Shown one piece after another: positions 14,301-17,300 of a DNA stretch of 28,067 nt (within the stretch, counting starts at the first letter, position 1; each line of letters starts with the position of its first letter). Location of the stretch: positions 1 to 28,067 of the IMG/VR virus record IMGVR_UViG_2534682158_000019. One strand, 5' to 3'. Source of the DNA: a virus. Lineage: Duplodnaviria > Heunggongvirae > Uroviricota > Caudoviricetes. The position numbers were made by a program.

Positions 14301-17300
14301 CGCATCAGTAACCTCTTTTACCCGAGCACGCCGGTTGCAAAGGCGTGATCAAGAAAACGAAAAATTAAATCAACCTGGGAACCATGCTTTTCTTCGAACG
14401 CCAGCGGATCCGCATGAAGTTCGTTGTGATGTTCCCGGCACAACGGTAGCGTGAAAATATCGTGGGCCTTTGTTCCCATCCCTCCCTGACCGTGACCAAT
14501 CAGGTGATGGGGATCGTCGGCTGGCTGACCACAACACGCACACGGCTGTGTTTTCACCCAGCGCGTGTATTTCTCATTTACCCAGCGGCGACGTTTAGGC
14601 CGCTTCATGAAAGATTCAGGAGACTCAGGATCAACGGCGACGTTTACCACCGTCTTTTCCTGTGGTGGGTTCTGTTGCTGGTGGGCGTGAGGTGGTAGCG
14701 CAATATTTTTTGTGCGCTGCTTCAGTATGCTGGTGGCCGTCTGCTCTCCCGGTATGATGTCGCTTTCGCGGTATACTGAGCGGATTTTTTCACCCGGAAG
14801 CTTCAGGATTCGACGCGCCATATTTTCGGTCATGGCATCCACTACATCATTTACAGCAGCCCAGCAGTACAATTCAGCCAGCGATAATTCCCGCTCCTGC
14901 GCACCGCTTATTGCGTGACGGATGACGTCAATCATCCATGCTGTCAGGTTTTGTTGAGCAAGTTGCTCAAGTGATTCTGAGGTCTGGTCACGCAGCTGGT
15001 TGTCGCAGTGCCAGCACAACACCATCGCGCCGGTGCCGTAACGATGTATGACGGTTTCACTGTGATGATAGTCACCATGAGGCCACTGGCAGGATTTGAC
15101 ATGACGCAACAGCCAGTCAGACAGTGCCCCAGCGCCGCCAGCAGCACGAATCACCCGCTCATCGCTGAAAAATGGCAGTAATGATTTATCCTCCGCCAGC
15201 GGCTGGCGAACAGCAGGGACGACTCCGGATGGCAGGCCGCACATGCTTTTCGGTTCCGGCTCCACCAGCACTCGAGGATTGTGAAATACCTGCATGGATT
15301 CACGACCTGGCTTAAGGACCACCAGCCCGAGTTCCGGTACCAGAACAGGTCGAAGTAATACCCGCACGTTACCTCCAGATCCGTTGCTGGAATGTGCGGG
15401 GCGGACGCGGTGGGCGTTCGGAGTAAGGAAGCCTGACGGAGATTATCCAGTGACGATAATCGAGGCTGAGGGCTTTCTTAATCTCGTATCCGTGTCTGCG
15501 GTAGCACTGAATTAGCCATTCAGCTTGTTCTTCAGTACATGGGGGATGCTGGTACCAATCAGATTTAAATGCGTGAGAGCGCCGCCCGTGCCTGCTGGCA
15601 AAGACGGCTGAATTATCAGAATTGTGTAGTCTGGAATTTTGCGCCATCGGCTTTCTCCGGTGGCACAGTGTTACTCAACAGGGGTTCAGCCCTGCGCTGA
15701 ATTATAGATGAATTCACTCATCTTCAAAAGCAGAAAAACCAGCCTTAATCCCAGCTTCTTTCAGAGACGGCAACGATGTGACAAATTCATTTGCACGCAA
15801 AATAAAACCATCCGTCACAAGCCCATCCACCAAATGAATTAACGCAGCTCCACTCTTCCTTTGTTGAGACTGTAAACATTTAATACGGCAGTGGCTGACA
15901 ATAGCGCCATTCTCAACGCGCACAGTATAGAGGCCATCGTCACAAAAAATTTTACGCACTTCTTCGATGTTCATCATCAGAATCCTTCCGGATAATTAGC
16001 TCTCCCCTTCAGGGGGCCATCCCTCTTATCCCTGCGCGCTACTTAAGTGTTTTGGATTCTATATCCGATGTCTTAAAAAAGTTAAAACGCATTGAAAATA
16101 AAAACAAAAACCCGCCGAAGCGGGTTAAGTGCGGGTGCGTTGAGGATGCCTGACACATCAGAGGTGGCGAGGGATTTCTCCCTCGCCTGGTCTCTTACTC
16201 CTCAGGTTCGTAAGCTGTGAAGACAGCGACCTCCGTCTGGCCGGTTCGGATTCGTACCTCACAGAGGTCTTTCCTCGTTACCAGTGCCGTCACTATGACG
16301 GTTAAACAGATGACGATCAGGGCGATTAACATCGCCTTTTGCTGCTTCATAGCCTGCTTCTCCTTGACCTTTCGGTCCGTAAGAGGCTAATCTCTATGTG
16401 TCGCATAGATATGGCCTCAGATTAATGTTAAGCGTCTTGCAGGACGCGTAATGTTAACTGGGGCTTTTCTCTATCTGCCTTTTGGTGTTCATGCCTGAGA
16501 CAGATAGCCTCAAGCACCCGCAGTCATTCTACTTAACTAAGATTTCCCTGCAAACCGTTTTTGTCCGGCACAGTAAATATCCAACTAAACCAATAGCGTT
16601 CGCTGTATTTACCGCCAGTATTCAATGCACATGACCGCCATGAACACCCCTAAAAAAAGGCATTTATATGTCCAAACATTAATATCAAAACATCAACTTT
16701 TTCCATATACCTTGCTGTGAAGATGATGGGCATACATGATGCGAACAACCAGAACGCAACAAACAAAAACTGCAATGCGTTTTTCATTATTCCTCCTACA
16801 ATCAATGTGCAATTACATTTAAACACACCTCAATTTGGCCGGACATATAAATATCTAAACCAGAAAAAATCACTTACATAGCGTTACAAACTCTTTAGTC
16901 TAAATATTCATCGTAAAACATTCCCCATACTTATCAGCCCACTCTACGCCAGGTAGTTCATTGCCTTATCTGGGAATCTGTAATCAGGTTTCCGTTTTTC
17001 AGTCGGCTGGTCGTTTAACCGGCATAGTTAACCCATTAATCTGGTTGCCGGATGCTGGTGGATTTTCGCGTTTTAGTTGTTCATAAAAGTGCACAGCTTT
17101 AACCAGTTCTTCTGATGTAACCGGGACTGGTGGGGCAGTGAATAAGGCCTGAATTTCATAGTTCGGCCTGTCGTTACAATCCTCTTTTTTCGGTACATAT
17201 TTCCAGTCACCAACCCACAACTCCCCCTGAGAGTCCATAACACCTTTTTTCACGTAGCGATATCGCCACGCTATCGGCTCTGCTTCCAGCGATGCCAGTG

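Follow-up and report, generated by a model that had tools for sequence, protein, structure and literature searches.

We describe a toxin-antitoxin locus in a 28,067-nucleotide stretch of viral DNA (IMG/VR record IMGVR_UViG_2534682158_000019, positions 1 to 28,067; hereafter the window). Positions 16103-16555 very probably hold a complete type I module of the hok/sok family, an allele of the hokW-sokW locus in which the toxin is identical to HokD. All of the sequence and structural elements of the family are present in this interval, Sok as a predicted RNA, and all of them are intact. The module is an ordinary example of a well-known kind of system with hokW-sokW as its nearest relative, and its importance outside annotation is slight. 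Its sole mildly new feature is a short, 19-codon allele of the leader reading frame mok, which agrees with published mutational data.

Architecture of the locus

The toxin gene had been read in an initial annotation of the window as encoding a 51-amino-acid protein of the Hok family. This is confirmed by an open reading frame (ORF) at 16195-16350 on the minus strand, the product of which (MKQQKAMLIALIVICLTVIVTALVTRKDLCEVRIRTGQTEVAVFTAYEPEE) matches the Pfam family HOK_GEF with E=1.2e-23 and 82.9 bits against a cut-off of 22. Alignment shows no difference from K-12 HokD and 47 of 51 residues in common with 933W-type HokW. Immediately upstream, the Rfam covariance model RF01794 ('sok'; gathering score 59 bits) matches positions 16348-16519 of the minus strand over its whole length (model positions 1-157 of 157, 106.7 bits). 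Despite its name this model sits on the hok-sense strand, where it spans the interval from the mRNA 5' end (GGGUGCUUGAGG, at 16519) to the hok AUG. This leader match, the pairing of the mRNA ends, a Sok-like antisense fold and the point at which homology to K-12 breaks off all agree with the earlier proposal of a hok/sok architecture lacking relBE. The interval first proposed (16195-16470) does contain hok, mok and Sok, but it was drawn too short at both ends: the hok promoter and mRNA 5' end (to 16555) fall outside it, as do the fbi box and terminator (down to ~16103). The elements of the locus are as follows.

16526-16554, minus: hok mRNA promoter TTTGCA-17-TAGAAT, sigma-70-like (consensus scan)
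16103-16519, minus: predicted full-length hok mRNA, ~417 nt, 3' end approximate (5' end from RF01794 position 1, 3' end from the terminator)
16508-16519, minus: tac, mRNA 5'-end box GGGUGCUUGAGG, paired with 16145-16133 in the minimum free energy (MFE) structure
16415-16418, minus: mok Shine-Dalgarno GAGG, 8 nt upstream of the mok ATG, kept in all leaders
16347-16406, minus: mok leader ORF, 19 codons plus a TGA overlapping the hok ATG (read from sequence)
16392-16409, minus: hypervariable patch with the mok start and first codons, a hairpin and the predicted target of the Sok 5' tail (column entropy)
16379-16388, minus: conserved AGCCUCUUAC box, ucb-like, kept in all leaders from Escherichia to Photorhabdus and Erwinia
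16360-16363, minus: hok Shine-Dalgarno GGAG, within the part shared with K-12 hokD (read from sequence)
16195-16350, minus: hok toxin gene, 51 amino acids, Pfam PF01848 HOK_GEF
16133-16145, minus: fbi (fold-back inhibition) box CCUCAACGCACCC, paired with the mRNA 5' end
16101-16126, minus: intrinsic terminator of the hok mRNA (terminator scan)
16364-16393, plus: putative Sok promoter, -35 TTGACC, 18-nt spacer, -10 TAATCT (read from sequence)
16400-16470, plus: predicted Sok antisense RNA, ~71 nt, both ends predicted

The TAGAAT box of the hok promoter lies 6 nt ahead of the GGGUGC at which the mRNA would start and is kept in nearly all related loci. Pairing between tac and fbi at the two ends of the transcript is a hallmark of hok mRNAs, and it is found in the predicted fold here: in the MFE structure of the predicted 417-nt mRNA, nucleotides 1-12 are paired to fbi through 12 base pairs with one bulge. 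Across 130-odd related loci the fbi box is mostly placed ~49 nt past the hok stop (range 45-56 nt), and the two boxes covary between genera, being GGGUGC/GCACCC in Escherichia and GGGCGC/GCGCCC in Photorhabdus and Pantoea. The AGCCUC of the AGCCUCUUAC box is complementary to GAGGCU of the 5' tac region, and by analogy with the R1 model this box may have a pairing role with tac. Two further observations concern the toxin gene and the sequence downstream of it. The Tyr46 codon of hok (window 16212-16215, minus strand) is UAC followed by G, and this UACG is a TadA A-to-I recoding context; such recoding, from Tyr to Cys, is described for hokB and for position 46 of hokC, hokD and hokE in the introduction of a preprint (bioRxiv 10.1101/2025.08.07.668861). 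The hok 3' untranslated region (UTR; 16105-16186, minus strand) gives a sub-threshold match (E=0.005) to IsrK, a small RNA (sRNA) of the Salmonella Gifsy-1 prophage. Its identification as isrK was rejected at 25.6 bits against an Rfam cut-off of 50, and we judge the likeness to be probably no more than a generic resemblance of hairpin plus terminator.

The predicted Sok RNA and its promoter

The plus-strand TTGACC-N18-TAATCT claimed initially as a promoter is indeed present in the sequence, with its hexamers at 16364-16369 and 16388-16393. It is the positional homologue of Sok promoters in related loci, namely TTGCGC-17-TATCCT in the R1-type plasmid locus and TTGCCT-17-TAACCT in 933W-type hokW. 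What makes it credible is that its position is conserved in 10 diverse loci, and not the strength of its motifs. The transcript is predicted to start near G16400 and to fold so that a 5' tail of 12 nt stays single-stranded across the mok AUG, in keeping with the earlier suggestion of an RNA antisense to the start of the upstream ORF. This tail would be followed by a long hairpin closed by a GGCCUC/GGGGCU clamp and by a U-rich tail ending near 16470. This layout of tail, hairpin and U-rich tail is common, together with the promoter position, to the same 10 diverse loci, with compensatory pairs in the stem; its relatives are those of R1-type plasmid, 933W-type hokW, Kluyvera, Citrobacter, Photorhabdus, Pantoea and Erwinia. 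The interior of the hairpin is unrelated in sequence among these loci and retains compensatory pairs. The sokW RNA of Sp5 is reported to be complementary to the hokW 5'-UTR over 71 nt and to have its own promoter; mutating that promoter unleashes toxicity (PMC8621323).

The mok leader and its short allele

A 19-codon ORF with a stop overlapping the hok ATG had been noted upstream of the toxin gene, and it is found at 16406-16347 on the minus strand. Its ATG occupies 16406-16404, its 19 sense codons are MRHIEISLLRTERSRRSRL, and its TGA (16349-16347) overlaps the hok ATG (16350-16348) as AUGA. This short coupled ORF is mok, which is longer in most relatives. Directly after the mok ATGC, in the loop of a small hairpin, the window is 2 nt shorter than phages Rac 442/2 and mEp460. 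The short mok is a by-product of two small changes: a loop 2 nt shorter and one extra T in the Sok promoter spacer together shift the mok frame, and the shifted frame remains open exactly to the hok start.

To place this allele among its relatives, the spacing between the start codons of mok and hok was tabulated for 118 loci with an intact Hok, 113 of which carry the leader.

57 nt, 92 loci: in-frame mok, the product being Hok with an N-terminal extension, 68-72 amino acids in all
58 nt, 6 loci: mok long and out of frame, the same as R1 by the coordinates in PMC9841398
56 nt, 15 loci: 19 codons ending on the hok ATG, including the allele of the window
no leader, 5 loci: relE-joined or otherwise rearranged

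The 57-nt class includes 933W-type hokW and an IncFII R1-like plasmid, and in-frame mok amounts to Hok with a 19-residue N-terminal extension (loci L004, L005, L139 and 89 others). The notion that mok is always out of frame with hok is therefore ruled out: R1 is out of frame, but the in-frame form is the majority in this survey. Although three different frames are in use, mok reaches the hok ATG without meeting a stop in all 113 leader-bearing loci of the 118-locus survey. Mutagenesis of R1 has shown that translation of mok is required up to the hok initiation region but not past it (PMC9841398), and the 19-codon mok is a natural minimal form of this requirement. The natural variation argues that translation up to the hok start matters and that the Mok peptide does not, in agreement with the published mutagenesis. 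The 19-codon form has separate origins in Erwinia and Kalamiella. A 96-nt segment diagnostic of the allele of the window recurs at 99% identity or more in ~778 E. coli records, in which the hokD annotation is intact; the allele is therefore widespread and cannot be put down to a sequencing error. We found no earlier description of a 19-codon mok in the literature covered, which leaves out Pedersen & Gerdes 1999 and Steif & Meyer 2012, so that its absence from earlier work is not established.

The changes in mok frame stem from insertions and deletions in the hypervariable patch, which is also the predicted recognition site of the Sok 5' tail. This patch (16392-16409) has the highest column entropy inside an hok mRNA that is otherwise 90-100% conserved, it is present as 19 alleles among 72 distinct E. 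coli-type mRNAs with the small hairpin retained in most, and it corresponds exactly to the stretch complementary to the Sok 5' recognition tail. It could serve as an address code, by which co-resident modules are controlled independently or neutralise each other. A comparison of copies within genomes gave no signal of this in the sample used: 7 of 8 same-genome copy pairs differ in the patch, and random pairs differ in 89% of cases. The differences between the three forms of mok (in-frame with an N-terminally extended Hok, long out-of-frame, and 19-codon) may not be neutral. It seems doubtful to us that this three-way polymorphism is both non-neutral and linked to the patch acting as an address code between co-resident prophage hok/sok modules. 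If it were so, the short mok allele would make the coupling one of pure termination-reinitiation at the AUGA, which could alter the yield of Hok per translation of mok.

Absence of relBE and relation to K-12 hokD

The initial annotation stated that no ORFs of relB or relE size lie upstream of hok. A tblastn search of the whole window with K-12 RelB and RelE (best E=0.36) and Pfam searches of the upstream ORFs, which gave no match to RelB, RelE or any other family, bear this out. The window does not have the K-12 Qin arrangement, in which a leaderless hokD directly follows relB-relE; it has a full leader in its place. The toxin proteins of the two loci are identical, and the DNA is near-identical to MG1655 from AGGAGAAGCAGGCTATG (the hok Shine-Dalgarno) through hok, fbi and terminator to the rem region. 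Homology to K-12 begins ~16 nt upstream of the hok ATG, at a breakpoint that coincides with the Sok -35 box; further upstream K-12 has the 3' end of relE, and relB-relE stand where the window has the hok promoter, tac, the Sok target, the mok start and the Sok promoter. Since what K-12 hokD has in common with this locus starts no earlier than the hok Shine-Dalgarno, the window holds the un-rearranged form of the hokD locus. The 1999 work of Pedersen and Gerdes is said to be consistent with such a form.

The K-12 relE-hok junction also adjoins a different Hok allele in a Kluyvera sp. genome (L030), and a viral contig (L135) has another, non-homologous sequence attached at this point, a little ahead of the hok Shine-Dalgarno. 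Together with loci L009, L090 and L094, these two suggest a recurrent recombination breakpoint.

Comparison with hokW-sokW, R1 and phage Rac 442/2

The hokW-sokW locus (with mokW) of Sp5/933W occupies the same niche, in the early-right region of a Stx-converting lambdoid prophage upstream of the Q antiterminator. The two loci are alike in promoter, tac, fbi, Sok hairpin and terminator. Their DNA is ~87-90% identical over the whole mRNA, and the toxins share 47 of 51 residues, the four that differ being C-terminal. They differ in that mokW is in frame with hokW (57 nt, 70-amino-acid product) whereas the mok of the window has 19 codons and ends on the hok ATG, in the Sok promoter (TTGCCT-17-TAACCT in hokW-sokW, TTGACC-18-TAATCT here), and in the Sok 5' tail and its target patch, which are unlike in sequence. 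Experiments have established hokW-sokW of Sp5 as a toxin/antisense pair, which raises phage release about twofold (PMC8621323). Our locus is potentially active by analogy, given that a locus with this ~87-90% identity has been shown to work (PMC8621323).

The likeness to R1 hok/sok (parB) is one of plan. The pairing of tac and fbi, the mok start lying under Sok, the Sok promoter within the mok-hok interval and the 19 mok codons upstream of the hok start are found in both, Sok being a predicted RNA here, and the mechanism is presumably the same. R1 differs in being plasmid-borne, in having a Hok that is clearly divergent by alignment and a Sok hairpin interior unrelated in sequence, and in its mok, which encodes 70 amino acids out of frame at a distance of 58 nt (coordinates in PMC9841398). 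The mok/hok locus of phage Rac of strain 442/2 (MN652886) is of the same TTGACC-18-TAATCT Sok promoter type, with the same leader and an almost identical Hok; the loop of its target hairpin is 2 nt longer, which puts mok out of frame and extends it to 68 codons across hok.

Alternative explanations

Several observations weigh against a working hok/sok module. Motifs as good as the Sok promoter occur in the window at 0.64 per kb per strand, which is chance level; its -10 box matches the consensus at three of six positions, with a spacer of 18 nt; and a consensus promoter scan of the window made no call at TTGACC-N18-TAATCT. The tac-ucb pairing of the R1 model is absent from the MFE folds of 3'-trimmed mRNAs, which form a local 5' hairpin instead, and no obvious YUNR (U-turn) motif is seen on reading the 5-nt target loop, CGACA. 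Finally, chromosomal hok loci tested earlier gave no post-segregational killing, as stated in the introduction of the same preprint (bioRxiv 10.1101/2025.08.07.668861). Taken at face value, the frequency of the promoter motif alone would allow the upstream ORF and plus-strand hexamers to be products of chance, with hok either unregulated or expressed by read-through as for K-12 relF/hokD, and simple arithmetic adds that a random 19-codon open frame is ~40% likely. Such a coincidence is nevertheless very improbable. The ATG, Shine-Dalgarno, promoter hexamers and hairpin are positionally conserved from Escherichia to Photorhabdus, Pantoea and Erwinia, the covariance model match covers the whole leader, and it is precisely the leader part that is missing from K-12. 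The promoter motif and the 19-codon ORF take their meaning from homology and conservation; taken bare, neither exceeds chance expectation.

It is also conceivable, though unlikely, that the locus retains the hok/sok layout but has lost its function or most of it. Deletion of 2 nt from the loop, together with the short mok, might have weakened Sok recognition or coupling, as the reduction of the target loop to 5 nt without a YUNR motif that we could read there would allow, or killing might have been lost as in several chromosomal hok loci. The same preprint summarises earlier work in which chromosomal hokA, hokB and hokC failed in post-segregational killing (bioRxiv 10.1101/2025.08.07.668861), and K-12 hokD is a truncated remnant. 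Against this, every element in the window is intact and free of insertion sequences, the allele is kept at a level of at least 99% identity in 778 E. coli records with the hokD annotation intact, an equivalent 19-codon mok is found in Erwinia and Kalamiella, and the closely related hokW-sokW locus is active. We therefore favour a complete hok/sok-family module over a decayed one.

Proposed mechanism

The steps of the following model are drawn from the R1 and Sp5 systems, and the elements and their conservation from the present work. A constitutive promoter would produce a stable hok mRNA of ~417 nt, which tac-fbi pairing would keep untranslatable and closed to antisense binding. Slow trimming of the 3' end would then take off fbi and allow the mRNA to refold with the mok ribosome-binding site exposed; activation by trimming is taken here from the literature, because MFE folding did not reproduce the tac-ucb pairing. 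While the prophage is quiescent, an abundant and short-lived Sok of ~71 nt from the opposite strand would pair through its 5' tail with the mok start region, blocking mok translation, and RNase III would cut the duplex. Once Sok was no longer replenished, upon prophage induction or loss, the 19-codon mok would be translated and the hok initiation region opened; ribosomes stopping at the UGA that overlaps the hok AUG would allow coupled translation of hok. Hok would enter the inner membrane and collapse it, leading to cell death or helping lysis and phage release. We infer in addition that, upon induction, transcription reading through on the hok strand would run head-on into the convergent Sok promoter. 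Such a collision would fit the rapid, RecA-dependent disappearance reported for sokW after mitomycin C (PMC8621323).

Prophage context, distribution and annotation

E. coli M00057 has a prophage with 100% identity to the window, and this prophage has a dicA/dicC flank, replication genes, DUF968, rusA, Q, three tRNAs and Stx2d. The locus sits in the early-right (nin) region of this Stx2d-converting lambdoid prophage, and hok is co-oriented with the early-right phage genes. As the Sp5 homologue approximately doubles phage release, an intact module of the hokW/sokW type in a Stx2d prophage is relevant to induction and toxin release. Of 5426 complete E. coli genomes, 3906 carry 80% or more of the 481-nt locus; when every genome that has a match of any kind is counted, the median number of places per genome is 2 and the highest is 9. 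It is also found in 110 phage records, many of them Stx phages, under labels that vary between mokW, hok, gef and host killer protein, and plasmids carry it too, P1-like ones among them. In RefSeq, the 100%-identical genome (NZ_CP061339.1, locus L001, 6001-6481) is given 'hokD' only, with the Sok RNA and mok unannotated despite an RF01794 score far above its cut-off; the locus could therefore be wrongly equated with the truncated relBE-hokD remnant of K-12.

Near-identical E. coli-type hok genes were also met on contigs of 275-431 bp assigned to Acinetobacter idrijaensis and Xanthomonas pisi and on a 2995-bp contig of a 'Candidatus Scatousia' metagenome-assembled genome, and a 94%-identical locus in an 'Actinobacillus phage'. 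The matches under these four names (L020, L025, L058 and hit H28) look like contamination or mis-assignment.

Elsewhere in the window, a gene for the DicF antisense RNA lies at 23615-23666 on the plus strand (RF00039, 76.7 bits against a cut-off of 48), consistent with a Qin-like dicA/dicC immunity region of the prophage. Three tRNA genes lie within 9304-11068 on the minus strand (Arg-tct, Arg-tcg and a tRNA with a CAT anticodon, which RefSeq gives as Ile), along with a match to the STnc100 sRNA (60 bits against a cut-off of 47), and in the identical genome the tRNAs are followed by Stx2d subunit A.

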